IMG/VR virus record: IMGVR_UViG_2574180238_000003 | DNA: 47,428 bases | Source: a virus | Taxonomy: Duplodnaviria > Heunggongvirae > Uroviricota > Caudoviricetes | Direction: 5' to 3' (one strand) | Part shown: positions 1-24,859 of the stretch, piece after piece | How the letters are laid out: each line of letters begins with the position of its first letter | How positions within the stretch are numbered: the first letter of the stretch is position 1 | The notes under the pieces: model-generated | Databases searched by the model: none | Told to the model about the DNA's origin: nothing | What the model saw: only the letters and a program-made list of their open reading frames with translations | Program-made: the position numbers and the translations under genes

Positions 1-1119
1 TCAAATAACCAACTTAACCCATTCCTGACCTCGGGTATCGTTATAGCGATCGGTGGTTGCCTGGACTTTATGTCCTAGTAAGGTTTTTGTATCGATACCC
101 TGTGCACGGTACAGCCGTTCAGATAGAGAGCGTTGTTCATGAAATGTGGGCGGTGTTTTTCCTGCTGGTGGAATTATTCCAGCCAGATCCCGCGCTTTGG
201 CAAAGTAGTCGCTCAGGTTGTCTTTACTCATCGGCTTTGGTTGTTTCTGGTGCCGACTATGGATTAGATATGGACTTAATATTCTGTCTCGGCATCCATC
301 AATAACGTCTTTTAACGTTATCCCAATGGCATCACAGCGTAGTGTAAGCGGTAACGCCAGACGCATTCCGGTTTTTCCCTGGGTGATATGCAAGTGTTCG
401 TTCCACACATCTGAAAAACGCATGTGGCAAATGTCATCACGGCGCTGACCAGTGACAATCGCAAGAAGCATTGCGTTACGGATAAAGTGTTTTTCCGGCG
501 TTGCGTTGTAAATTTTTTGCCAGTCTTCCAGGGCGAGCCTGGCTCTGGTTACTTTAGGGATCGGTTTACGGGTAGCCTCCGGAGGATTCCATCCAGGAGG
601 AACTTCCCCTGCATGTTGTGCTTCTTTATAAATATCAACCCATAATCCGCGATTTACTCTCGCTGTGCTGACCATGTCTTTATCCAGCCATTCATCCAGT
701 ATTAATGCAAAGTCTCTTACTTCCAGGTCTTTCAATGGGTGATTTCCCAGGCGGAAAACCAGGTATGCAGCCATTCGCGCCTTTTCTTTGTGGGTTGTAG
801 CTGCAATATCTCCATTTTTCAGTCGTGAGTCCTGTATTTTCAGATATCGATCAACCCATGCTTTTAATCTGATACCCCGACGTTTTGTTGCTGATGGACT
901 TTCATCAATTTTGCGCATGAAATATTCTGCTTCTGCTGCAGCTATTCGTTGATTAGCCGTGGAAGCGATTTTTTCTGCCTTGTCTTTGTCTGTTCCGAGT
1001 CCGTGAAATTTTCCAGTCACTGGATTTTTATACTGGTAGTAAACCTTGCCAGTTCTGCGATCAAACTTTTCGTAAAGACATGCTATGTCAGTGCTGTTTT
1101 TTCGTGGCCTCGGTGACAT
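1..1119 (-). CDS. int: Phage integrase (tyrosine recombinase)
   Basis: 372-aa ORF ending at window position 1. C-terminal half shows the tyrosine-recombinase layout (TGQRRDD arginine box, HEQR, LLGH, terminal Y in TDRY). Lies at the prophage left end overlapping xis, as in lambda. Confidence 0.9.
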   Translation of the reverse strand: MSPRPRKNSTDIACLYEKFDRRTGKVYYQYKNPVTGKFHGLGTDKDKAEKIASTANQRIAAAEAEYFMRKIDESPSATKRRGIRLKAWVDRYLKIQDSRLKNGDIAATTHKEKARMAAYLVFRLGNHPLKDLEVRDFALILDEWLDKDMVSTARVNRGLWVDIYKEAQHAGEVPPGWNPPEATRKPIPKVTRARLALEDWQKIYNATPEKHFIRNAMLLAIVTGQRRDDICHMRFSDVWNEHLHITQGKTGMRLALPLTLRCDAIGITLKDVIDGCRDRILSPYLIHSRHQKQPKPMSKDNLSDYFAKARDLAGIIPPAGKTPPTFHEQRSLSERLYRAQGIDTKTLLGHKVQATTDRYNDTRGQEWVKLVI

Positions 1120-1366
1120 GAGTTAAAATCTCCTTCAGTGCGTCATCATCGTCAGTATGAATTTCCGGCGCAATTCCTGTTTCACCAGGACCCACAAATA
1201 CTGCTCGGCGATCTATCAGCCAACGCCCACGGATTTTTTGTGGCCTTGGAACGATGTATCCCATTTTTCCGTATTTCACCAGGGTAGTGTTTGTTATTGG
1301 GAGACTGAACCGTTTAGGTTTCCACTCGTCGAGCGTTATCAGGTACTGTTCGCTCATGGCCATCAC
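1088..1366 (-). CDS. xis: Excisionase (Xis-like DNA-binding protein)
   Basis: 92-aa ORF immediately upstream of and overlapping the int start; small basic protein in the canonical xis position. Exact start Met among MMAM is uncertain. Confidence 0.7.
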   Translation of the reverse strand: MMAMSEQYLITLDEWKPKRFSLPITNTTLVKYGKMGYIVPRPQKIRGRWLIDRRAVFVGPGETGIAPEIHTDDDDALKEILTHVTEATKKQH

Positions 1367-1418
1367 TCCGGAATGCGCCAGTTGCAGAATAGCAACTACA
1401 ACTGGCGACGGTTGAACA

Positions 1419-3890
1419 TTAAAAATCAGCCTGACTCGGGATCAGTTTTTGCCAGATGGCTGAAACGTATTTTGCCTGGTAACGCGTATCGTGCAGGGCG
1501 TTATGGTGTTCACCTTCGAATGGAATAGTCGTTCTTGCGTCGAAATCCATCACCAGTCCCAGAGCAACCATCGTTCTTACATCGCGATCATTGGTGTAAC
1601 GCCACGGGCAGGGGATCCCCTGCCGTTCATATGAACGGCGTAAAATCACGTTGTCGAAAGTTGCACCGTTACCCCAGACCTGAACAAAAAATTCACCGGA
1701 GTTTTCGTCGATAAATTCCCGGAATTGCAGCAGTGCATCATCCAACGGGATTTCATCGGTCAGAATGGCGGATTGTGCTTCGCGTGACTGTTTCAGCCAC
1801 CACTTAATGGTGTCCCGTTCGATGACCCCGCCTGCGGTTTCCAGATCGATAGTTTTGCTGAATTCTGGCCCCATCTCTCCGGTTGCCGGATCAAAAAACT
1901 TACCGGCTATAGCGTTTATTGGCGCATCAGGATTTTTTCCCATTGTTTCAAGGTCAATCATCAGATGGTGCCACAACCTGCTGGTGGATGTGATTTCACG
2001 ATGACCGTTCACCTTAATTAAGGGATTTGCTGTCTCGCCAGTTTTATTATCGCTGGCGTGATACTGATCGCTGTCAGTGTTCTCCTTGTGCGGATCTTCA
2101 GTGCCTTCCATTTCCTCCGGAGCATTTTCCTGAACTTCAATCAGGCTCTCTCCATCGAATGTTTCCTGGTAGGTTGCGTCGCCCATCACCGCACCACAGT
2201 CAGGACAGTTGCCGCCACCGGTCTGACCGCATGCGGTGCAAACTTTCTCCACTTCCTGTTGCACTGCTGGTTCTGGTTGTTGCTCTTCTGGCCCGTTTTG
2301 TTGCGTATCCGGGCTGTTTTGTTCCGCTTCTGGCTCATTTTGTTTCACGCCGGGCTGATTCTGGCCCTCAGCGTTGCGACTCTGGATCCCTTTCACCCAT
2401 TTCGGATCATTAGGGTCGCTAATCCCTTCAACAAATTCACCACGTGATGCAGCAAGCAATTTATCGGCGTCAGGCTGGCTGATATTGGCTGCCTGCATAA
2501 TTTTGTTTACTTCGTCAGCGGTAACTTTTACCGGCTCTGGTTGTACGGAATCTTCAGCGGTATCTACATTTTGCGGTAAGCCCGTATATGTGCCATTTTT
2601 TCGGGCAAAATATTCCTCTTTTGAGATTTCGGTAGCGCCGGCAGCCAGCGCCTTGTCCAGACCAGAAAGTTTGTTTGCCCTGCCGTATTTTTCCTCGCCC
2701 TTATCGGTAAAGACGAAATAAAATGGTCCTTCACGCTCTACAGATGGTTCAGCTTCCACCAGGATTTCATTTTTTTGAGTATCGGATTCTGCCGTCTCCA
2801 CTGGAGCAGTTTGTGCTGCTGACGGCTGGAGAGTATCAGCAGAGCTCTGGTCTGTTTCTTCATGCTCAAACACGCCCTTTGTTGTCAGGTATTCGCTGAT
2901 ATATTTGTTCAGTGCAACGGGATCTTTGTGAATGTCGATCGGACGTTCACGGACAAGGCCAAAAATAGTCTGACGGTCATAGCCAAGTGCTTCGGGCTGT
3001 TTGCGCATTGATGCTGAGATACGCTTCCAGTCTTCGCGATCCTTGTCGATAACCTCATTTGTCGCCCAGCGATGGATGGTACCGTCAATATTTCCCGCAT
3101 TCACATCACCGGGCCAGAGGGCGCAGGCCAGCTCATTGTCGAGTGTTTTCCATGTCTGTTTGTATTCTCGGCGAACGGCAACAGTGACATCCCCGGTTTT
3201 TTCAGCAGAGTTTTCAGTGTTCTGTTGGTTTACTCTGGAACGGGCGATATCAACGACAGATGTGTATTTCCCGGTTTCCTTGCGTTCACCTTCGCGACGT
3301 TTTTTCCAGATGCGCATCTCTGCCTGAATTTCGGGCCATTTAGCAGCAGGCTTGCATTTATGCTTAACCCACCCGATGGCATGCAGCTTAAGCTCCGGAT
3401 ACATGGCGTTAACTTCTGGCATTTTCATCAACGCTTCAACGATATGGCCGTCGAATGTTGCCATGTCTTCCTGCAACAATTCCTGTGCGCTAATCACCAT
3501 ATCAACAGTGATGTTTTCACATGTGTCGAACTTAACCATGACGGCGTTCTGTACTTCAGGGGCCAGCTTGTCAAAGGTGACGTTCATCGGATCGGATTCA
3601 GTCTCGACCGGGACAAAGGAAGCAGACGCCTCATCCCAGCGGTTTTCCTGCATATATTCGGTATCCCAGGAATCGAGGGTAGGGCGGGGTATGCCGGGTT
3701 TATCCTCACAGACAATAAATTTATAAGCGCAGTCCTGAGCTGCCGGGAATTGCTCCAGAAATTGCCAGTGAAATTTTGCGCGTGCGCGACGCTCATCACC
3801 GGCTTCAATGGCAGTGGCCACCGCAACAGCGCTATCTTCTTTTATGGCCTGTTCATCAGGAATAGCCGCGCAAATAAAGATTTTACTCAT
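1419..3890 (-). CDS. Exodeoxyribonuclease VIII (RecE)-family protein with C-terminal DnaQ-like DEDDh 3'-5' exonuclease domain
   Basis: 823-aa ORF. Central Cys-rich segment (CTACGQTGGGNCPDCGAVMGDATYQETF) and the flanking KLLAASRGEFVEGISDPNDPKWVKGIQ segment resemble the RecE linker region as recalled. C-terminal ~200 aa carry DEDDh motifs read directly: MIDLETMG (DxE), WGNGATFDN, HNALHDTRY (Hx4D). Confidence 0.75.
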   Translation of the reverse strand: MSKIFICAAIPDEQAIKEDSAVAVATAIEAGDERRARAKFHWQFLEQFPAAQDCAYKFIVCEDKPGIPRPTLDSWDTEYMQENRWDEASASFVPVETESDPMNVTFDKLAPEVQNAVMVKFDTCENITVDMVISAQELLQEDMATFDGHIVEALMKMPEVNAMYPELKLHAIGWVKHKCKPAAKWPEIQAEMRIWKKRREGERKETGKYTSVVDIARSRVNQQNTENSAEKTGDVTVAVRREYKQTWKTLDNELACALWPGDVNAGNIDGTIHRWATNEVIDKDREDWKRISASMRKQPEALGYDRQTIFGLVRERPIDIHKDPVALNKYISEYLTTKGVFEHEETDQSSADTLQPSAAQTAPVETAESDTQKNEILVEAEPSVEREGPFYFVFTDKGEEKYGRANKLSGLDKALAAGATEISKEEYFARKNGTYTGLPQNVDTAEDSVQPEPVKVTADEVNKIMQAANISQPDADKLLAASRGEFVEGISDPNDPKWVKGIQSRNAEGQNQPGVKQNEPEAEQNSPDTQQNGPEEQQPEPAVQQEVEKVCTACGQTGGGNCPDCGAVMGDATYQETFDGESLIEVQENAPEEMEGTEDPHKENTDSDQYHASDNKTGETANPLIKVNGHREITSTSRLWHHLMIDLETMGKNPDAPINAIAGKFFDPATGEMGPEFSKTIDLETAGGVIERDTIKWWLKQSREAQSAILTDEIPLDDALLQFREFIDENSGEFFVQVWGNGATFDNVILRRSYERQGIPCPWRYTNDRDVRTMVALGLVMDFDARTTIPFEGEHHNALHDTRYQAKYVSAIWQKLIPSQADF

Positions 3891-10949: not shown

Positions 10950-11159
10950 AAACGGTTTGCGGGGAAAGAAGAGTTAAGTAGAATTGCTGCGGGTGCTTGA
11001 GGCTGTTTGCCTCGGGCATGCCGCCGTAAGGCAGACAGAGAAAAGCCCCAGTTAACATTACGCGTCTTGCAGGACGCTTAACATTAATCTGAGGCCCAAT
11101 CTATGCTTCACAAACGTAGGTTAGCCTCTTACGTGCCGAAAGGCAAGGAGAAGCAGGCT

Positions 11160-11315
11160 ATGAAGCAGCAAAAGGCGATGTTAATCGCCCTGATCGTCAT
11201 CTGTTTAACCGTCATAGTGACGGCACTGGTAACGAGGAAAGACCTCTGCGAGGTACGAATCCGAACCGGCCAGACGGAGGTTGCTGTCTTCGTAGACTAC
11301 GAATCTGAGAAGTAA
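11160..11315 (+). CDS. hokD: Hok/Gef-family type I toxin (HokD/RelF-like)
   Basis: MKQQKAMLIALIVICLTVIVTALVTRKDLCEVRIRTGQTEVAVF... matches the Hok family signature and recalled RelF/HokD; GC hairpin ggcgagggagaaatccctcgcc (11325-11346) just downstream, typical of hok mRNA 3' ends. Confidence 0.85.
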   Translation: MKQQKAMLIALIVICLTVIVTALVTRKDLCEVRIRTGQTEVAVFVDYESEK

Positions 11316-12819: not shown

Positions 12820-13179
12820 ATGCTCATAGATTTGGTTTTACCTTACCCGCCGACGGTGAACACTTACTGGCGTCGTCGTGGCAGCACATATTTTGTCTCA
12901 AAAGCCGGGGAGCGTTATCGCCGGGCAGTGGCGCTTATTGTTCGCCAGCAGCGGCTGAAATTAAGACTGTCCGGACGGCTGGCAATAAAAATTATTGCAG
13001 AGCCACCGGATAAGCGTCGTCGTGACCTGGACAATATTCTGAAAGCGCCGCTGGATGCGCTGACGCATGCGGGAATGTTAATGGACGATGAGCAGTTTGA
13101 TGAAATCAATATTGTACGTGGTCAGCCAGTATCTGGTGGACGGCTGGGTGTGAAGATTTACAAAATTGAGAGTGAGTGA
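12820..13179 (+). CDS. rusA: RusA Holliday-junction resolvase
   Basis: 119-aa ORF; LPYPPTVNTYWR... N-terminus and the DKRRRDLDN acidic motif match the RusA family; nin-region position upstream of Q. Confidence 0.85.
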   Translation: MLIDLVLPYPPTVNTYWRRRGSTYFVSKAGERYRRAVALIVRQQRLKLRLSGRLAIKIIAEPPDKRRRDLDNILKAPLDALTHAGMLMDDEQFDEINIVRGQPVSGGRLGVKIYKIESE

Positions 13180-13187
13180 GCGTAAAT

Positions 13188-13718
13188 ATGATATATCCGG
13201 AAATTACAGGCAAAAGCGGCGAACATTTACGCCTGAACACGCTGGAAGCAGTCTGGATCCAGGGGAAATTACGGATGTGGGGGCGGTGGTCGTATATCGG
13301 TGGGGGTAAATCCGGAAATATGTTTAACCGGTTACTGGTTTCGAAAAAACTGACGAAAACCGCAGTTAATGAGGTTTTACGCAGAATGAAGAAATCCGGG
13401 CTGGATAAACCGGAACTTGAGGCATTTTTTCGGGATATGACAAGAGGAAAGCAGAAGAGCTGGTTGTCACATTGTACAGACACAGAGGCGTTGATTATTG
13501 ATCGCGTTATCAGTGAGGTGCTTGGGGAATATCCCGGGCTAATCAATGTTCTCCGGCAAAGGTACGAAGGACGGGGAATGAGTAAGAGAAAAATGGCAGA
13601 ATGTTTAAATCGTACTCACCCGGAATGGTGCTTCAGCACATGTGAGAAACGTATTGCAGGTTGGTTAGCCGTGGCTGAACACATGCTTTATGTACCTATG
13701 CACGATTCATTTCGATAA
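13188..13718 (+). CDS. Late-gene antiterminator Q
   Basis: 176-aa ORF directly upstream of the late region (methylase, tRNAs, lysis genes), downstream of rusA; Cys/His-containing C-terminus; assigned mainly by position and size. Confidence 0.65.
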   Translation: MIYPEITGKSGEHLRLNTLEAVWIQGKLRMWGRWSYIGGGKSGNMFNRLLVSKKLTKTAVNEVLRRMKKSGLDKPELEAFFRDMTRGKQKSWLSHCTDTEALIIDRVISEVLGEYPGLINVLRQRYEGRGMSKRKMAECLNRTHPEWCFSTCEKRIAGWLAVAEHMLYVPMHDSFR

Positions 13719-14307: not shown

Positions 14308-15366
14308 ATGTTTAATACTGTAAAAATATCCAGTTGTGAGTTGATCAACGCTGACTGCCTGGAATTTATCCGGTCGTTACCCGAAAATTCTGTTGACCTG
14401 ATAGTCACGGCCCCGCCGTACTTTAAAGTGAAGCCTGAGGGCTGGGATAACCAGTGGAAGGGCGACGATGATTACCTGAAATGGCTGGACCAGTGTCTGG
14501 CGCAGTTCTGGCGGGTGCTGAAACCTGCCGGAAGTCTTTACCTGTTCTGTGGCCATCGCCTGGCATCTGACATTGAAATCATGATGCGAGAACGCTTCAG
14601 TGTGCTGAACCATATTATCTGGGCGAAGCCGTCCGGACGCTGGAACGGGTGCAACAAGGAAAGCCTGAGGGCGTATTTCCCCGCCACAGAGCGCATTCTG
14701 TTCGCGGAACATTATCAGGGGCCGTATCGTCCGAAAGATGCCGGGTATGAGGCGAAGGGCAGGGCACTGAAACAGCATGTGATGGCACCGCTGATTGCTT
14801 ACTTTCGTGATGCGCGTGCTGCCCTGGGGATAACGGCAAAACAGATTGCTGATGCCACAGGAAAGAAAAACATGGTGTCGCACTGGTTCAGTGCCAGTCA
14901 GTGGCAGTTACCGAACGAAAGCGATTATCTGAAATTACAGGTGCTGTTTGCCCGGGTGGCAGAAGAGAAGCATCAGCGGGGTGAACTGGAAAAGCCCCAC
15001 CACCAGCTGCTGGAGACGTATACTTCACTGAACCGGCAGTATGCGGAACTGCAGAGTGAATATAAGCATCTGCGGCGGTATTTTGGCGTGACGGCGCAGG
15101 TGCCGTACACGGATGTGTGGACGCATAAACCGGTGCAGTACTATCCCGGGAAACATCCGTGCGAAAAACCGGCAGAAATGCTGCAGCAGATAATCAGCGC
15201 GAGCAGTCGTCCGGGTGACCTGGTTGCAGATTTTTTCATGGGGTCGGGTTCGACAGTCAAAGCCGCGATGGCGCTGGGGCGGCGTGCAACTGGCGTTGAG
15301 CTGGGGACTGAACGTTTTGAGCAGACGGTCAGAGAAGTTCAGGATTTAGTCAGTCAGAACGGATGA
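14308..15366 (+). CDS. Orphan DNA methyltransferase (beta-class amino-MTase)
   Basis: 352-aa ORF; catalytic TAPPY motif near the N-terminus and AdoMet-binding FMGSGST near the C-terminus (circularly permuted order typical of beta-class MTases); no adjacent restriction enzyme. Confidence 0.85.
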   Translation: MFNTVKISSCELINADCLEFIRSLPENSVDLIVTAPPYFKVKPEGWDNQWKGDDDYLKWLDQCLAQFWRVLKPAGSLYLFCGHRLASDIEIMMRERFSVLNHIIWAKPSGRWNGCNKESLRAYFPATERILFAEHYQGPYRPKDAGYEAKGRALKQHVMAPLIAYFRDARAALGITAKQIADATGKKNMVSHWFSASQWQLPNESDYLKLQVLFARVAEEKHQRGELEKPHHQLLETYTSLNRQYAELQSEYKHLRRYFGVTAQVPYTDVWTHKPVQYYPGKHPCEKPAEMLQQIISASSRPGDLVADFFMGSGSTVKAAMALGRRATGVELGTERFEQTVREVQDLVSQNG

Positions 15367-15406: not shown

Positions 15407-15482
15407 GGCCCTTTAGCTCAGTGGTGAGAGCGAGCGACTCATAATCGCCAGGTCGCTGGTTCAAATCCAGCAAGGGCCACCA
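15407..15482 (+). tRNA. tRNA with CAU anticodon (Ile2/lysidine-type, ileZ-like; Met not excluded)
   Basis: 76-nt cloverleaf: acceptor GGCCCTT/AAGGGCC, D-arm GCTC..GAGC, anticodon loop CTCATAA, T-loop GGTTCAAATCC, 3' ACCA encoded; close to recalled E. coli ileX. Confidence 0.85.
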
Positions 15483-15491
15483 TATCACATA

Positions 15492-15568
15492 CCGCCATTA
15501 GCTCATCGGGATAGAGCGCCAGCCTTCGAAGCTGGCTGCGCGGGGTTCGAGTCCTCGATGGCGGTCCA
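15492..15568 (+). tRNA. tRNA-Arg (anticodon UCG)
   Basis: 77-nt cloverleaf: acceptor CCGCCAT/ATGGCGG, anticodon stem CCAGC/GCTGG with loop CTTCGAA, T-arm CGGGG-TTCGAGT-CCTCG, 3' TCCA. Confidence 0.8.
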
Positions 15569-16334: not shown

Positions 16335-16590
16335 TGTGAAGTGTTAAATCCCTCACAATTCAGTAAGTTGACAGTTGCCTGTCAGACTGAGCATTTGTTA
16401 AAAAAATTTCGCATGGTGAATCCCCCTGTGCGGAGGGGCGACTGGTGAACGGTATGATCTCTTTGATGATCGTAAGCGAGAATACGCGGGTTTGGTGTCA
16501 CCGGGCTGAACTCACCGGGAGGCACCCGGCACCATGCTCATGGTGATACAGAAATGCGGCTTCAGCCCCTCTCCGGAGGGGCTTTCTTAT
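16335..16590 (+). repeat. Structured repeat unit 1 of 4 (candidate sRNA)
   Basis: Conserved blocks ttaaatccctcacaattcag, gcatggtgaatccccctgtgcggaggggc, caccgggaggcacccggcaccatgc, and terminator hairpin gcccctctccggaggggc with T-run. Confidence 0.6.
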
Positions 16591-16746
16591 GGACAAAAAA
16601 AGCCCGCGCTGGGAGACGCGGGCGGCAAGGAATAAACAATAAAACGTGAAGTAATACTTCAACTGGCGAATAATACCCGACAGTAATCACTCTGCGCAAT
16701 AGCGTGGCCTTTTTCGAATTGCGGGCTGTAGTCTCCCTTCTGCCGG

Positions 16747-16900
16747 GTGTCCTGGTTGCAGATTTCTTCATGGGGTAGGGTTCGGCAGTTAAAGCAGCGA
16801 TGGCGCTGGGGCGTCGTGCAACTGGCGTTGAGCTGGATACCGGGCGTTTTGAACAGACTGCGCAGGAAATCAGGGATGTATTTAGCGGGAGCGGTTTGCA
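16747..16900 (+). pseudogene. 3' fragment of a DNA methyltransferase gene (paralogous to 15216-15366), in-frame stop
   Basis: Nucleotide similarity to the 3' end of the intact methylase gene; translates as VLVADFFMG*GSAVKAAMALGRRATGVELDTGRFEQ... Confidence 0.7.
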
Positions 16901-16970
16901 GAAGTAATCTCCCAAAATGCCATTTTTGGAATATACTGGTATTAAGTCTTTTTGCTCAGGTTAATTCAAA

Positions 16971-17696
16971 ATGGATGTTGCCTGCTCTGTGGTCCTGATT
17001 CGCTATCCGATAGATATTTTTCTTGAAAAAGAAAAAGTTTCACTCGATGCCGGAAGTGTTATGCTTGTTGCCAGAAATATAAGAGGGCTTTTCTGTGCTT
17101 ATGCCGACAGAGTGAAAATGGCAGATATAAGTAACAGCGTCGTCAATCAGTATCTGGAAAGGGAGTGTGAACTGACGGAGTATACACCGACAAAAATGCC
17201 TCTTTATTTGATGTCTGATATTTACAATACGGAACTGGCGGAGGCTTTAATAACCCAGCATAGTGAATCCAGTGATACTTTGAAGGATTTCTCTGTTATA
17301 ACCGCATTTTCATGTATCTCCTTATTTGCAACAGACAGACGTCTGCCATTATTTTTGTCCGGTGCTGTAAATAATATCAGCTGTAAAGTAAGGGCTATAA
17401 TTCAGACCGACATATCGGCAGGCTGGATGCTTGGTGTGATTGCATTACAATTGCATATGAGCGAAAGCTTGTTGAAGCGAAAACTTAAGGATGAAGGTTA
17501 TAGCTTTAGTCGGTTGTTGCTGGAGGAGCGAATGCGTGTTGCTGTTAATCTTGTATGTTTCCAGCGAGAGTGTGGACAAGCGATAGCGGAAAAATGTGGT
17601 TACTCAAGTAAGTCCTACTTCATTTCTGTATTTCACCAGTATTATGGTGCACCACCTGAGAGCTATGCATATTTGCAGAAAGCAGACGTTATCTGA
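16971..17696 (+). CDS. AraC-family transcriptional regulator
   Basis: 241-aa ORF; C-terminal AraC-type dual HTH (GWMLGVIALQLHMSESLLKRKLKDEGYSFSRLLLEERMRVAVNLV...KCGYSSKSYFISVFHQYYGAPPESY); AT-rich gene in the accessory block. Confidence 0.8.
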   Translation: MDVACSVVLIRYPIDIFLEKEKVSLDAGSVMLVARNIRGLFCAYADRVKMADISNSVVNQYLERECELTEYTPTKMPLYLMSDIYNTELAEALITQHSESSDTLKDFSVITAFSCISLFATDRRLPLFLSGAVNNISCKVRAIIQTDISAGWMLGVIALQLHMSESLLKRKLKDEGYSFSRLLLEERMRVAVNLVCFQRECGQAIAEKCGYSSKSYFISVFHQYYGAPPESYAYLQKADVI

Positions 17697-17785
17697 TGTT
17701 TTTTCATCAGGCATATATTGATTGACTGTATTAGATATAGTCTGAATGTGTTCAGCATAAAAAGTTATAATCATTTGGTGTTTGC

Positions 17786-18064
17786 GTGAATATTGATGAG
17801 AAAATCAGATGTAGCCAACTGTTACAGCGTATTGAAGCCGTCAATGTGGAACGAACAAAGGTCTTCAGTCGTCTGACAGTTTTATTTTGTACCCCTGATC
17901 GACGTTCAGGTCAGGAGATGGTTCTTCTGGATGTAGATGCACTTCGGAACGTCTGTGAGGAGTTCACCGCGGCTAATTCGGAGTTACTGAGTCTTGTTCA
18001 GGAGTACAACAGAATTGCAGGTAGTAACGGTTTTGATGAAATCAAAATTATATCCCGTGGATAA
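17786..18064 (+). CDS. Hypothetical protein
   Basis: 92-aa ORF (GTG start, or ATG 17796) downstream of the AraC gene. Confidence 0.35.
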   Translation: MNIDEKIRCSQLLQRIEAVNVERTKVFSRLTVLFCTPDRRSGQEMVLLDVDALRNVCEEFTAANSELLSLVQEYNRIAGSNGFDEIKIISRG

Positions 18065-18304
18065 AACATATCCTGTATATTTATGTTGTTACATACAGGC
18101 GCTTTTAGTATCTGCCGCACGGCAGTTGTACTTCAGAATAAGATGCTTTTGTGACTGGTGGTGTTGTATCTGGGGTTAGCCAGTAGGCAGGTTCAGAGAG
18201 TCCGGTGGTAATTATGTGTATGCAGTGGTTGTTGCTGTACCGTGGGCAAGTTCTGGAACTGGCTTCGTCCATTGTAGATGATTGTTAGCTGGATATCAGT
18301 TACC

Positions 18305-18548
18305 TCATGGAAATGTTAAATGACTCACAATTCGGTTGATGGGCTATTGTCTGATCGATGGAAGTCTTGTAAAAACGAGCCAGCATAGTGAATCCCCCTG
18401 TGCGGAGGGGCGTCTGACATGGTCTCCATAGCGATGGTCACAATACGCAGATTCAGTAGTCAGGCTGAATCTACCGGGAGGCACCCGGCACTATGCTGCT
18501 TATGGTGTATACATAGCGATCGGCCCCTCTCCGGAGGGGCTTTTTTTG
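18305..18548 (+). repeat. Structured repeat unit 2 of 4
   Basis: Same block order as unit 1; long-range helix gcatagtg (18383-18390) / cactatgc (18489-18496) carries a compensatory base-pair change relative to unit 1; terminator gcccctctccggaggggc plus T7. Confidence 0.6.
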
Positions 18549-18564
18549 TGCGGGAAAAGGCTGT

Positions 18565-18806
18565 GTTGTTAAGTGTTAAATTCCTCACAGTTCAGATGGT
18601 TGATGCTTGCCTGTCTGAGGGGGCGTTGTTAAAAAAGTTCTGCATGGTGAATCCCCCTGAGCGGAGGGGCATATCAGCGCAGGTGTTTCTACTCTATCCT
18701 TTCTGTGCGGGTTCAGGTGCTGATACTGAACTCATCGGGAGGCACCCGGCATCATGCATATGGTTAACAGACACGTAGCGAAGCCCCTCTCCGGAGGGGC
18801 TTTTTT
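18565..18806 (+). repeat. Structured repeat unit 3 of 4
   Basis: Same blocks; helix gcatggtg / catcatgc (G-U wobble); terminator gcccctctccggaggggc plus T6. Confidence 0.6.
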
Positions 18807-18824
18807 ATGCAGGGAAAAGGCTGT

Positions 18825-19062
18825 GTTGTGAAATGTTAAATTCCTCACAATTCATGAGGTTGATGATTGTCTGATTGATGAGGAGTTTGTTAAAAAAAAC
18901 GGGCATGGTGAATCCCCCTGTGCGGAGGGGTGATATCGTATCATTTCCTGTGTGGCCGACTGATATCACGGACATTTGTTCACCGGGAGGCACCCGGCAC
19001 CATGCAGTATACAGAGATTAGGCATACATCCAGGCTCCTCATCGCAGGAGCCTTTTTACATG
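18825..19062 (+). repeat. Structured repeat unit 4 of 4
   Basis: Same blocks; helix gcatggtg / caccatgc; different terminator sequence (ggctcctcatcgcaggagcc plus T5) in the same position. Confidence 0.6.
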
Positions 19063-19291
19063 TAAAAAAAAAAACGCTCCTGGGAAGAGCGGTTGGCAAG
19101 GAAGCAAGGAATAAATAACAAAACGTGAAGTAATTTATTCAGCACCCTAATAATACCTTAGAGTAATCACATTGCGCAACTGTAAGGGCGTATTTCTTTT
19201 TTGCGGGCTGTTTTTCTGTGTGACTTTTGTGTTTCCGGAGGTCAGCCCGTGCCTTCTCTGACTCAGAACATTATCCCGGCCGGGAGGATTC

Positions 19292-21256
19292 ATGGCATTT
19301 AAACACTACGATGTGGTCAGGGCGGCATCGCCGTCAGACCTTGCTGAACGACTGACACAAAAACTGAAGGAGGGCTGGCAGCCATTTGGCAGTCCGGTGG
19401 CCATCACGCCTTATACCCTGATGCAGGCCATTGCGGCGGAAGGTGATGTCACCACACCAGTGGCGGTGACCGGTAATGAGGGTAAGGCGGTGGCTGTCAG
19501 TGCCACCAGCGACCCGGAGTATTACTTTGTTGTGGTTCTGGCAGGGCAGTCAAATGGCATGTCGTATGGTGAAGGTCTTCCGCTGCCGGAGACATATGAC
19601 CGTCCGGACCCGCGCATTAAGCAGCTGGCGCGCCGCAGTACGGTGACACCGGGCGGTGCAGCATGCAAATATAACGACATCATTCCGGCGGACCATTGTC
19701 TGCATGATGTGCAGGACATGAGCCGCCTTAACCATCCGAAAGCGGACCTGTCAAAGGGGCAGTACGGTACCGTGGGGCAGGGGCTGCATATCGCCAAAAA
19801 ACTGCTGCCGTTTATACCGGCGAATGCGGGTATTCTGCTGGTTCCGTGCTGTCGTGGGGGTTCAGCGTTCACCACCGGAGCTGATGGCACATACAGTGAC
19901 GCTGGCGGTGCCTCGGAGAATTCAGCGCGCTGGGGTGTGGACAAGCCGCTGTATAAGGACCTTATCGGTCGAACAAAAGCAGCACTGAAGAAGAACCCGA
20001 AAAATGTGCTGTTTGCCGTGGTGTGGATGCAGGGGGAATTTGATTTTGACGGCACGCCCGGAAATCACGCAGCACAGTTTGGTGCGCTGGTTGATAAATT
20101 CCGTGCAGACCTGGCGGATATGGCAGGCCAGTGCGTCAGTGGCTCTGCTGGCGGTGTTCCCTGGATATGCGGGGACACGACGTATTTCTGGAAGCAGAAG
20201 AACGAATCCACGTACCAGACGGTGTACGGCAGCTATAAAAACAAAACGGAAAAGAATATCCATTTCGTACCGTTCATGACGGATGAGAACGGGGTGAATG
20301 TGCCGACGAACAAACCGGAAGAAGACCCGGACATTCCGGGTATCGGGTATTACGGTTCGAAATGGCGTGACAGCTCAGCCCCCTGGACGTCACAGGACAG
20401 GGCGAGCCATTTCAGCACCTGGGCACGCCGGGGGATTATTTCCGACCGTCTGGCAACGGCGATTCTGGTGCACGCCGGGAGAACCGCTGAATTCATTACC
20501 GGAAAACAGCCTGATATGGTGAAGCCCACCGTACCTTCCGGTGAAGGTCCGGAGAGAGAGGCGGAAGCCCCGGTCAGTAACCGAACCCTGATGAGTCTGC
20601 TGGCATCCGGCGAAGACCTGGCATCACAGGGCTGGCGCTATTATCACAAACCGGCGGGCGGGGACAGTGTTAACAAAAACATTGCTGAAGCGGTGGTCAG
20701 TGATGCGGGGGCTACGGGAGGTAAGGCTCTGCAACTGAACAAACCGGAAAACCACATCTGGTTTCTGGAGCATGATGCAGCCGGACAGGGTGCGGAGTTA
20801 CTGAAGAAGGGCGGACGTGTGAGCGTACGGTTTAAGTTGCCGGGTTCACTGGTGCCGAATCAGTTTGCCCTGGGCATTTACTGGCAGTTGTCGTCCCTGC
20901 CGGAGGGGGTGACGCTGTCAGGAGAAGGTAACGATATGCTGATGTCTTTCTTCCTGCAGACGGATACGACGAACCTGAACGCGATGCATCACAGGAAGCC
21001 GAATGCGAAGCTGGATACATTCGGGGTCTTTGATAACGGATGGCACACGCTGGCTTTTGAGTTTGCCGGAAACAACAGCATTCAGGTGACACCAGTACTG
21101 GATGAGAAACGGGGAGCGGCGTTCACACTGGTGAAGTCACCGGCATCGGGGGCGGCGGACAAACTGCAACTGACCGATATATCAAAATCGGCGACGTATA
21201 CGCTGCTGATTGACAGCATTGCGGTGGAAGTGAACAGCACAGACACTGCGGCATGA
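19292..21256 (+). CDS. NanS-p-type sialate O-acetylesterase (SGNH/SASA hydrolase)
   Basis: 654-aa ORF; GQSN catalytic motif (VVVLAGQSNGMSYGEG); location between Q/tRNAs and the lysis cassette as in Stx-type lambdoid phages. Confidence 0.75.
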   Translation: MAFKHYDVVRAASPSDLAERLTQKLKEGWQPFGSPVAITPYTLMQAIAAEGDVTTPVAVTGNEGKAVAVSATSDPEYYFVVVLAGQSNGMSYGEGLPLPETYDRPDPRIKQLARRSTVTPGGAACKYNDIIPADHCLHDVQDMSRLNHPKADLSKGQYGTVGQGLHIAKKLLPFIPANAGILLVPCCRGGSAFTTGADGTYSDAGGASENSARWGVDKPLYKDLIGRTKAALKKNPKNVLFAVVWMQGEFDFDGTPGNHAAQFGALVDKFRADLADMAGQCVSGSAGGVPWICGDTTYFWKQKNESTYQTVYGSYKNKTEKNIHFVPFMTDENGVNVPTNKPEEDPDIPGIGYYGSKWRDSSAPWTSQDRASHFSTWARRGIISDRLATAILVHAGRTAEFITGKQPDMVKPTVPSGEGPEREAEAPVSNRTLMSLLASGEDLASQGWRYYHKPAGGDSVNKNIAEAVVSDAGATGGKALQLNKPENHIWFLEHDAAGQGAELLKKGGRVSVRFKLPGSLVPNQFALGIYWQLSSLPEGVTLSGEGNDMLMSFFLQTDTTNLNAMHHRKPNAKLDTFGVFDNGWHTLAFEFAGNNSIQVTPVLDEKRGAAFTLVKSPASGAADKLQLTDISKSATYTLLIDSIAVEVNSTDTAA

Positions 21257-23229: not shown

Positions 23230-23850
23230 ATGAAAGATCAAGATGTTAGGTTCGCGGTGCATCATAAGCTTTTGAAAGAATCGCATTTAGATCCAGACTG
23301 CCTTGTGGTCGATGAATTTTCCATATCCCTTGGCGCCAGTAGAGCAGACATTGCTGTAATAAATGGTGTTATACACGGGTACGAGCTCAAAAGTGAATAT
23401 GACTCTTTGGAGCGTTTGCCTCTTCAAATCAAGCATTATTCTTCTGTAATGGACAAGGTTACTCTTGTCGTAGCTGAGAAACATCTTGAGGGAGCATTAA
23501 AGTTAATCCCAGGTTGGTGGGGCGTTAAAACGGTTTCTGTTGGGTCAAAAGGCGCCATTCTTATAAAGCACATGCGTGGAGAAAAGCTTAATCGAAACCA
23601 TGACACATTGATGCTCGCTCAATTGCTTTGGAAAGATGAATGTATCGACGTACTTGAACGATGGGGCTATTCCAAAGGAATCAAAAGCAAGCCCCGATTT
23701 GAGTTATGGAATATTATTGCGGAAAATATTCCAATAGCGAATCTCAGGCTTGAAGTCAGAACAGCCTTAAAGAAACGCGTAGGCTGGAAAGTTAAGGCTT
23801 GGCAGGCTGAGTCTGCGCCAACCAATAAAGCTGTCTCACGACTAACGTAA
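23230..23850 (+). CDS. Hypothetical protein with PD-(D/E)xK-like nuclease motif
   Basis: 206-aa ORF with a strong Shine-Dalgarno (GGAGGGAGTAAGGAGAAG before the ATG); putative active-site elements RADIAVINGVIHGYELKSE (D...ExK); AT-rich; convergent with and overlapping the next gene. Confidence 0.6.
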   Translation: MKDQDVRFAVHHKLLKESHLDPDCLVVDEFSISLGASRADIAVINGVIHGYELKSEYDSLERLPLQIKHYSSVMDKVTLVVAEKHLEGALKLIPGWWGVKTVSVGSKGAILIKHMRGEKLNRNHDTLMLAQLLWKDECIDVLERWGYSKGIKSKPRFELWNIIAENIPIANLRLEVRTALKKRVGWKVKAWQAESAPTNKAVSRLT

Positions 23851-24859
23851 TATGGTGCGTATGTGCAACTTTACGCCATTCTTTAGAGCCGCCAGATTTG
23901 TTAGCGCCTAATGATCTTTGGTAAATGTAATCATCCCCCCAACTAAATTTGGAGCCAAAGACTTGATACTCTGGCGAACTAACAAGGGTAGTACATAAGT
24001 TTTTAGTTTGGCCCCATCCATTTCCTTTAACTGCGGTACCTTTTACAAAGATCCATGAGGTATCGTTCGAATATCTCACTGAGACATACTGAGACATGAA
24101 GCGTGGGTCTACGCTCGTAATGGTAGAGCTAGCGGTGGGATAATCACTAAAACTTGGCGTTCTTCCATTGCTAAAATTCTGTACTACGTACATCCAAAGA
24201 TCGTATTCATGGCGCGGAATATGATGAACTTGATGTTGCGGTATCCCTGCCTGTGATGCCGGGTATGCGGTTGAAGATAAAATCAAGTTTCTCCACGGAG
24301 CTTGGCCTGATAATGTGTTGACCATGCTTAATGCTTGTTGTTTTAAACTATCAGTTGCGTTTTGAATATCTCCAAAATCAATGATTACATCAATTAAACT
24401 AGGATGAATATTTAAGTGGTTAACCAGACTTGTGAATTGGTGCCATGTCTGGGGGGTGATAGATATAGCGAGCCCATTGATTAAGTTGCGTTGAACAGCA
24501 TGTATATAGTTTGTTGAATATGTGGGAGAAACAACAGGGATAATTTCCTTACCATTTACTCTAGCATCTTGGATACACATATCTAGAGGATGATGGCGGC
24601 TCGAACCATGTTTATCTAAATATTTAACATCCAGCAAAACAGGACGATTGGCTTTCCAGGATGCCGCAAGGTTAATACCGAAGTCAGATAAGTAAGAACT
24701 CAAACTCTTCTTGTAGCATTCGTTTTCATAATCCCAGTCTATGTCTGGAATGGTAATGATCGGAGTAAAACCAGAGAGCGTAGTTTGATCTAAAAGCATC
24801 AGAGATTCATATTCAGCAGGCTTCCATTTCAGCTGTGGATAATATTGATGTTGACTCAT
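23792..24859 (-). CDS. Hypothetical protein (355 aa), partner of the PD-(D/E)xK-like gene
   Basis: Minus-strand ORF with an AAGGAG Shine-Dalgarno upstream; its 3' end overlaps the plus-strand gene by 59 bp; no recognisable motifs; AT-rich promoter region at 24860-25060. Confidence 0.6.
   Translation of the reverse strand: MSQHQYYPQLKWKPAEYESLMLLDQTTLSGFTPIITIPDIDWDYENECYKKSLSSYLSDFGINLAASWKANRPVLLDVKYLDKHGSSRHHPLDMCIQDARVNGKEIIPVVSPTYSTNYIHAVQRNLINGLAISITPQTWHQFTSLVNHLNIHPSLIDVIIDFGDIQNATDSLKQQALSMVNTLSGQAPWRNLILSSTAYPASQAGIPQHQVHHIPRHEYDLWMYVVQNFSNGRTPSFSDYPTASSTITSVDPRFMSQYVSVRYSNDTSWIFVKGTAVKGNGWGQTKNLCTTLVSSPEYQVFGSKFSWGDDYIYQRSLGANKSGGSKEWRKVAHTHHITLVVRQLYWLAQTQPAKP

Follow-up and report, generated by a model that had tools for sequence, protein, structure and literature searches.

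Does an AraC-type regulator gene carried within a prophage serve the phage or its host and, if it serves the host, which genes would it control? The question arises at a locus within a 47,428-nucleotide stretch of viral DNA (hereafter the window), which holds a lambdoid prophage extending from the integrase gene (positions 1–1119, minus strand) to the genes for the tail tip, the tail fibre and fibre assembly. The initial annotation had described an AT-rich gene for a 241-aa AraC-type regulator, located between repeat units and outside the positions needed for phage development, and had considered it a possible host-directed regulator. The ORF listing returned exactly this reading frame, intact from its ATG start to its stop codon, and the AT richness was likewise borne out by a GC content of 41.3% for the gene compared with 51.8% for the window. 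The repeat units flanking it proved to be copies of the small RNA STnc100, with copy 1 on its left and copies 2–4 on its right (Table 1).

An accessory gene between Q and the lysis genes

From the late-gene antiterminator gene Q to the lysis genes, all features lie on the plus strand in the order Q, methyltransferase, tRNAs, lipoprotein, STnc100 copy 1, methyltransferase remnant, regulator, orf92, STnc100 copies 2–4, esterase and lysis genes. The regulator gene, which we refer to as psr-like for the reasons given below, is an accessory gene of a lambdoid prophage: it sits within the accessory interval between Q and the lysis genes and shares its strand with both. In Stx phages this interval is occupied by stx, and a SASA-type esterase gene is the typical downstream neighbour of the stx locus. 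No stx genes were found at the Q-to-lysis locus studied here, and no effector or PerC/Pch-type genes were recognised among the scanned ORFs of the window. A review describes Psr regulators as associated with type III effector loci and with Pch regulators in LEE-positive strains. The same arrangement around the regulator was found in O113:H21 FWSEC0010 and in a bovine isolate, and in strain 05-3629 the prophage adjoins ompW.

Table 1. Features around the psr-like regulator gene, with positions in the window.
Feature	Position	Strand	Basis
Late-gene antiterminator Q, DUF1133 type	13176–13718	+	Pfam DUF1133 (E = 1.4e-110), Phage_antitermQ
DNA methyltransferase	14308–15366	+	
Two phage tRNAs: CAT anticodon and tRNA-Arg(TCG)	15407–15568	+	ARAGORN
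Predicted lipoprotein with TolA C-terminal domain, 142 aa	15847–16275	+	PF06519 (E = 5.7e-23), signal/lipobox region
STnc100 copy 1	16382–16594	+	Rfam RF02076, 172.4 bits
Methyltransferase 3'-end remnant, 152 nt	16743–16894	+	Repeat search; 80% identical to 15211–15362
-10-like hexamer TATACT, 33 nt 5' of ATG	16932–16937	+	Comparison of upstream regions
1,289-bp cassette: most of -10 box, psr-like gene, orf92, 157 bp 3'	16933–18221	+	blastn against STEC2018-607, junction sequences
psr-like gene, AraC/XylS-family regulator, 241 aa	16971–17696	+	ORF, Pfam, phrog_1450, match to GadX structure 3mkl, tree, dN/dS
orf92, 92 aa, GTG start	17786–18064	+	phrog_2873 (E = 1e-46); not annotated by PGAP
STnc100 copy 2	18354–18549	+	Rfam RF02076, 119.5 bits
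STnc100 copy 3	18614–18812	+	Rfam RF02076, 134.9 bits
STnc100 copy 4	18874–19063	+	Rfam RF02076, 141.3 bits
Esterase gene, SASA/DUF1737/DUF6645	19292–21256	+	Pfam; PGAP 'SASA family carbohydrate esterase'

The Rfam scores of the four STnc100 copies compare with a gathering score of 47 for RF02076. A repeat search revealed that copies 2–4 are arranged in tandem with a period of 260 nt, while copy 1 is closed by a terminator-like hairpin at 16564–16583. According to the available part of a recent preprint (10.64898/2026.05.13.724894), STnc100 is related to the prophage sRNA PasD and is found close to esterase genes in Stx-phage-related prophages; tandem STnc100 arrays receive no mention in that part of the text. 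The copy number of STnc100 varies by strain, and the gap between the regulator and esterase genes measures 1,595 bp here, 1,865 bp in O113:H21 FWSEC0010 and 1,594 bp in OkiPb01681.

Several further features of the prophage were recorded alongside. The first phage tRNA was called tRNA-Met(CAT) by ARAGORN and tRNA-Ile by PGAP in related genomes, where it was presumably read as lysidine-modified, and two tRNAs are present at this position compared with three in Stx phages such as phiSTEC1575-Stx2k. The gene for the TolA-domain lipoprotein, just 3' of the tRNAs, is also present in phage mEp460_ev081; speculatively, a free periplasmic TolA domain III could block Tol-dependent colicins or filamentous phages. 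In the early-right region, a sok antitoxin RNA (10991–11165, plus strand; RF01794, 115.8 bits) indicates a putative toxin-antitoxin locus of the hok/sok type. Between the lysis genes and the terminase gene lies an AT-rich convergent gene pair (38–42% GC; 23230–23850, plus strand, and 23792–24859, minus strand), one member belonging to the sce7726 family (NCBIfam, 184.9 bits; PADLOC 'cll', E = 2e-31) and the other matching Beta_protein (PF14350, E = 7.7e-56; PADLOC PD-Lambda-2_C, E = 5.6e-32, and 'beta'). By these matches, the pair looks like anti-phage defence cargo.

Relationship to Psr, PatE and the chromosomal regulators

Both Pfam HTH_18 (E = 2.6e-12, 47.3 bits, cut-off 33.6) and HTH_AraC (E = 1.4e-10, 41.5 bits, cut-off 26.6) matched residues 158–232 of the regulator, and the phage family phrog_1450 covered its full length with 309 bits. 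The best match among solved structures was the DNA-binding domain of GadX (3mkl, E = 1.9e-18). The C-terminal DNA-binding domain (approximately residues 135–235) with its two helix-turn-helix motifs places the protein in the AraC/XylS family, in line with the earlier assignment. The putative N-terminal domain (approximately residues 1–130), of the kind that serves dimerisation or signal sensing in this family, aligns with those of Psr, PatE, YdeO and GadW, and the N-termini of full-length homologues line up with that of the regulator residue for residue. An AlphaFold2 model built from a 16-sequence alignment reached a pLDDT of 48, too low for use. All database names for the protein are generic (e.g. 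'helix-turn-helix domain-containing protein'), a literature search found no mention of the accession WP_000382066, and defence-system models returned no match to the regulator.

The phylogeny against characterised AraC-like regulators that the initial annotation had called for placed the protein within the Psr clade with 100% bootstrap support (neighbour-joining tree, 500 replicates), with PatE, YdeO, GadW, GadX, AppY and EnvY outside. Its nearest relative, P0002 (62–63% identity), paired with it in 83–93% of the bootstrap replicates, while a grouping of Psr with PatE was recovered in only 40%. The clade is diverse, its lineages being 56–92% identical to the Psr protein of EDL933. For the identity comparisons, reference proteins were taken from EDL933 and K-12, and EDL933_RS10010 (1.905 Mb, OI-57-region prophage) is, by its position, the protein that we take to be PsrB. 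The regulator is 59% identical overall to this Psr-type protein, with 48% over the N-terminal 130 residues and 73% over the DNA-binding domain, and shares 36% identity with PatE, 34% with GadW, 30% with YdeO, 27% with AppY and 26% with GadX. As PsrA-like reference we used P0015, the most abundant Psr-type cluster (2,285 members); this assignment derives from its 91% identity to the EDL933 copy, in keeping with the 90% reported for PsrA versus PsrB (PMC8565820).

Orthology to individual known regulators found no support. The best NCBIfam model, the YdeO equivalog NF007407, aligned with residues 1–230 at 119.8 bits compared with a cut-off of 348, and the GadX equivalog NF007432 matched the C-terminal half only, at 92.6 bits compared with a cut-off of 500. 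As these scores lie far under the equivalog cut-offs, the regulator is orthologous to none of the chromosomal regulators. Assignment as a YdeO or GadX orthologue was rejected on these scores together with the low identities, and assignment as a PatE orthologue on its identity and the position of PatE outside the Psr clade. Taken by its sequence, the regulator is a divergent, uncharacterised, deep branch of the Psr family and the sort of phage cargo to be expected, without a new mechanism.

With PsrA and PsrB (prophage-encoded secretion regulators, z1789/z2104, E. coli O157:H7 EDL933) it shares the clade, the apparent two-domain architecture, a similar length (237 versus 241 aa), the position between Q and the lysis genes among the accessory genes of lambdoid prophages, the late-operon strand and a conserved -10 box. 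It differs from them not only in overall and N-terminal identity but also in its surroundings, as it lies 3' of the phage tRNAs within an STnc100 array and is linked to orf92, whereas PsrA and PsrB are encoded immediately 5' of tRNAs. PatE (z0321, prophage CP-933H / OI-8) is likewise prophage-borne, AraC-like and part of the YdeO/GadX-like subfamily, and differs little from the regulator in recognition helix 1 (SESLLKRKLK-D/E-EG), but it occupies another type of prophage position. YdeO, GadW, GadX and AppY of the DLP12 prophage are set apart by their identities of 26–34% to the regulator, even though YdeO provided the best NCBIfam model and GadX the best structural match. A further psr-type gene is gp36 of the Stx2k phage phiSTEC1575-Stx2k, a lambdoid phage; it is 59% identical to the regulator and lies in the same interval 3' of Q. 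In contrast, gp36 shares 92% identity with the Psr protein of EDL933 and is located directly 5' of tRNAs and stx2k.

In phiSTEC1575-Stx2k, which was deposited as a complete genome, the segment 6001–8324 comprises the psr-type gene, the tRNAs and stx2k, with an iraM-like anti-adaptor gene just 3', so that regulators of the acid and stress network travel with toxin genes in this phage. Reviews place psrA (z1789) on OI-50, and one mentions six additional Psr homologs. In the OI-50 region of the revised EDL933 assembly (NZ_CP008957.1, 1,625,001–1,675,000), however, the interval from Q to the esterase gene proved to be devoid of psr-type genes, and psrA could not be located; the prophage of this region adjoins potC and carries nleL, espN and espK.

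The putative recognition helices of the regulator were placed by alignment to the helix-turn-helix motifs of the family as SESLLKRKLKDEG and SSKSYFISVFHQYY. In the alignment, both fall within the variation among PsrB, the PsrA-like P0015, P0004 and PatE, and helix 1 is the same as that of P0004 and one residue off that of PatE. The putative base-contacting residues are R170 and K214; the corresponding residues are T and R in PsrB and I and W in the PsrA-like protein. These differences suggest that the DNA site preference could differ from that of PsrA and PsrB, and the N-terminal divergence from PsrB suggests that the signal input or the interaction partners may differ as well.

A dispensable cassette, its companion ORF and signs of selection

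The methyltransferase remnant upstream of the regulator is annotated by PGAP as a pseudogene at loci L001, L011 and L012, and loci L009 and L010 carry an intact methylase gene directly 5' of a psr-type gene. From this methylase-psr order it follows that the remnant would mark the ancestral gene order, and we interpret it as a recombination scar left when the cassette arrived from a phage ordered methylase, psr, sRNAs and esterase, as at L010. Comparison by blastn with the prophage of STEC2018-607 revealed a 97%-identical backbone that has the sRNAs and the esterase gene and is devoid of the 1,289-bp cassette, the junction showing a 2-bp AT microhomology. Given the ancestral order, the cassette-minus strain would most simply have arisen by deletion. 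The phage backbone can do without the cassette, and this presence/absence polymorphism, together with the Q-to-lysis position, upholds the earlier view that the gene lies outside the positions needed for phage development.

Within the cassette, the regulator gene is followed by orf92. A homologue that is 62% identical follows the regulator's closest relative at L009, and with a dN/dS of 0.33 orf92 is a conserved small ORF under purifying selection. AlphaFold2 modelled the product as two long helices forming a helical hairpin (pLDDT 82). Searches of Pfam, NCBIfam and PADLOC gave no match, and Foldseek comparison of the model with the PDB returned nothing at E < 0.3 and only generic coiled coils. 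Resemblance to a TraM-like anti-activator was seen at E of about 1 and provides no evidence for such a role, and there was no similarity to the PerC family. An obligate partnership with the regulator was rejected for two reasons: at L010, in EDL933 and in the Stx2k phage the psr-type genes have no orf92 beside them, and in phage mEp460_ev081 orf92 occurs on its own, between Q and a TolA-like gene and without any AraC gene. The linkage between orf92 and the regulator is confined to this sub-lineage.

These neighbours bear on the possibility that the regulator acts locally on the phage and its cargo, that is on orf92, the STnc100 array, the esterase gene, the late genes or induction, and not on the host chromosome. 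Control of adjacent genes is common among AraC-family regulators, an sRNA array surrounds the gene, and orf92 has stayed linked in two lineages that now share about 62% identity. We nevertheless regard local control as improbable, as the neighbours of psr-type genes vary (tRNAs in EDL933 and the Stx2k phage, no orf92 at L010), orf92 occurs without an AraC gene in mEp460_ev081, and the cassette-minus backbone keeps its sRNAs and esterase gene.

The dN/dS values of the regulator were 0.17, 0.16 and 0.23 in comparisons with three diverged homologues, whose synonymous sites are nearly saturated, and place the gene under purifying selection. Together with the intact ORF and the conservation at 99% identity or more in 79 complete genomes, this answers the concern raised at the outset that the gene might be a pseudogene. 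Upstream of the gene, the -10-like hexamer (TATAAT or TATACT) is invariant in position 5' of five diverged psr-type genes, their upstream regions being otherwise only about 50–70% identical. Because of this invariance, we suggest that the regulator has its own promoter. A generic sigma-70 scan called no promoter 5' of the regulator, no good -35 element was recognisable there, and the Shine-Dalgarno sequence is weak. A terminator scan placed two terminator-like hairpins, the one closing STnc100 copy 1 and another at 16692–16707, between the late promoter region and the regulator.

The regulator could also be a silent passenger that has stayed intact because it was acquired recently, is kept silent by H-NS and affects neither phage nor host. 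The AT-rich composition, the weak promoter and ribosome-binding site, the harmless loss of the gene from the backbone in some strains and the identity of at least 99% among carriers, which leaves little time for decay, would all fit. However, dN/dS values of 0.16–0.23 at near-saturated synonymous divergence imply a lineage long maintained as protein, different lineages have kept the -10 box, and phenotypes have been measured for its close relatives PsrA and PsrB (PMC10877973, PMC8565820). A gene without any effect is hardly to be expected on this evidence.

Carrier strains and the proposed function

The regulator gene was found at 99% identity or more in 79 of 5,426 complete E. coli genomes and at 95–99% in one more, and the 3.3-kb arrangement around it is common to 78 complete genomes. 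A further 728 records, among them O157:H7, O26, O103, O111 and O145 strains, hold classical psr types only, at about 69% DNA identity and usually in 2–3 copies. Among the best 60 of the 79 carriers exactly one psr-like locus was present in each, so that no other psr-like gene exists there. Where carriers have a named serotype, it is O113:H21, O91:H21, O91, O104:H21, O22:H8 or O43; O113:H21, O91:H21 and O22:H8 belong to the commonest LEE-negative STEC serotypes (PMC6455142), O104:H21 is likewise a LEE-negative type, and by these serotype names the carriers appear to be LEE-negative STEC. This sets them apart from the strains of PsrA and PsrB: they have neither psrA nor psrB, and a repression of type III secretion, to which Psr owes its name, would probably have no target. 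As the carriers look LEE-negative, the type III secretion arm of Psr function is probably inapplicable and only the acid-resistance arm would apply. The hdeA-hdeD-gadE region is present in 5,417 of the 5,426 complete E. coli genomes.

According to reviews, PsrA and PsrB raise GadE and YhiF, and PsrB attaches to the promoter of gadE and has one binding segment in the hdeA promoter in common with PatE, acid resistance being increased and the LEE repressed indirectly (PMC10877973, PMC8565820). PatE activates gadE and hdeAB (PMC10877973), and AppY, GadX, GadW and YdeO likewise converge on gadE/AR2 (PMC10057817). Since all characterised members of the subfamily act on gadE/AR2 at mutual identities of about 30%, activation of the acid fitness island (gadE/hdeA) would be the best-supported role for the regulator. 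We infer host-directed regulation from homology, the function being transferred across 59% identity, and we consider it fairly probable that the gene encodes an intact Psr-type activator, a self-contained accessory gene of the prophage that raises host acid resistance via gadE/hdeA.

According to this proposal, the gene would be transcribed in the lysogen from its own weak promoter, possibly in an activator- or stationary-phase-dependent manner, while upon prophage induction it would be read through, as stx is, from the Q-antiterminated late transcript past the hairpins at 16564–16583 and 16692–16707. The targets of the protein would be AT-rich sites in two promoter regions of the acid fitness island on the host chromosome, those of gadE and hdeA/hdeD, and by binding there it would raise glutamate-dependent acid resistance (AR2), as do PsrA, PsrB, PatE, AppY, YdeO, GadX and GadW. 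The payoff would be acid survival in the stomach, the rumen or food, and not the repression of type III secretion.

A functional Psr-clade regulator might also have a regulon other than the acid-resistance island, and its targets could be adhesins, toxins or metabolic genes of LEE-negative STEC, or AT-rich acquired genes on which it would act as an anti-H-NS factor. The deep branching within the clade and the divergence from PsrB, most marked in the N-terminal domain, the inferred recognition positions 170 and 214 that are unlike those of PsrA and PsrB, the status as sole psr-like gene in 60 of 60 inspected carriers with a pathotype other than that of PsrA/PsrB strains, and the control of pili and toxins by the structure-solved AraC relatives Rns, CsvR and ToxT lend this some weight. 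On the other hand, the characterised subfamily members all converge on gadE/hdeA at mutual identities of 26–37%, and recognition helix 1 matches P0004 fully and PatE in all but one residue. We thus regard a different regulon as rather unlikely, though a more serious contender than local control or a silent passenger. A bolder version, to which we attach little credence, would combine the cassette, as a two-part module, with the four STnc100/PasD-type sRNAs that surround it and would be co-expressed with it at the stx-equivalent locus into a phage-borne regulatory island of LEE-negative STEC, in which the regulator would have a re-tuned N-terminal sensor and orf92 would serve as its modulator or anti-activator, rewiring a regulon beyond the acid island and boosted on induction.

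Activation of the acid fitness island remains the preferred reading, and the regulator does not change the understanding of Psr-type systems. No phage cargo illustrates a connection to the acid-resistance network of the host more clearly than the prophage-borne PsrA, PsrB, PatE and AppY, and to our knowledge prophage AraC-like regulators have so far been studied only in O157:H7 and K-12. In LEE-negative STEC, for example O113:H21 and O91:H21, which are likewise causes of severe disease, the psr lineage described here appears to be their equivalent. With the type III secretion output probably absent from these strains, the lineage would offer a clean test of whether acid survival alone keeps such regulators in place. 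The natural cassette-plus and cassette-minus strains with their 97%-identical backbone provide a ready-made comparison.
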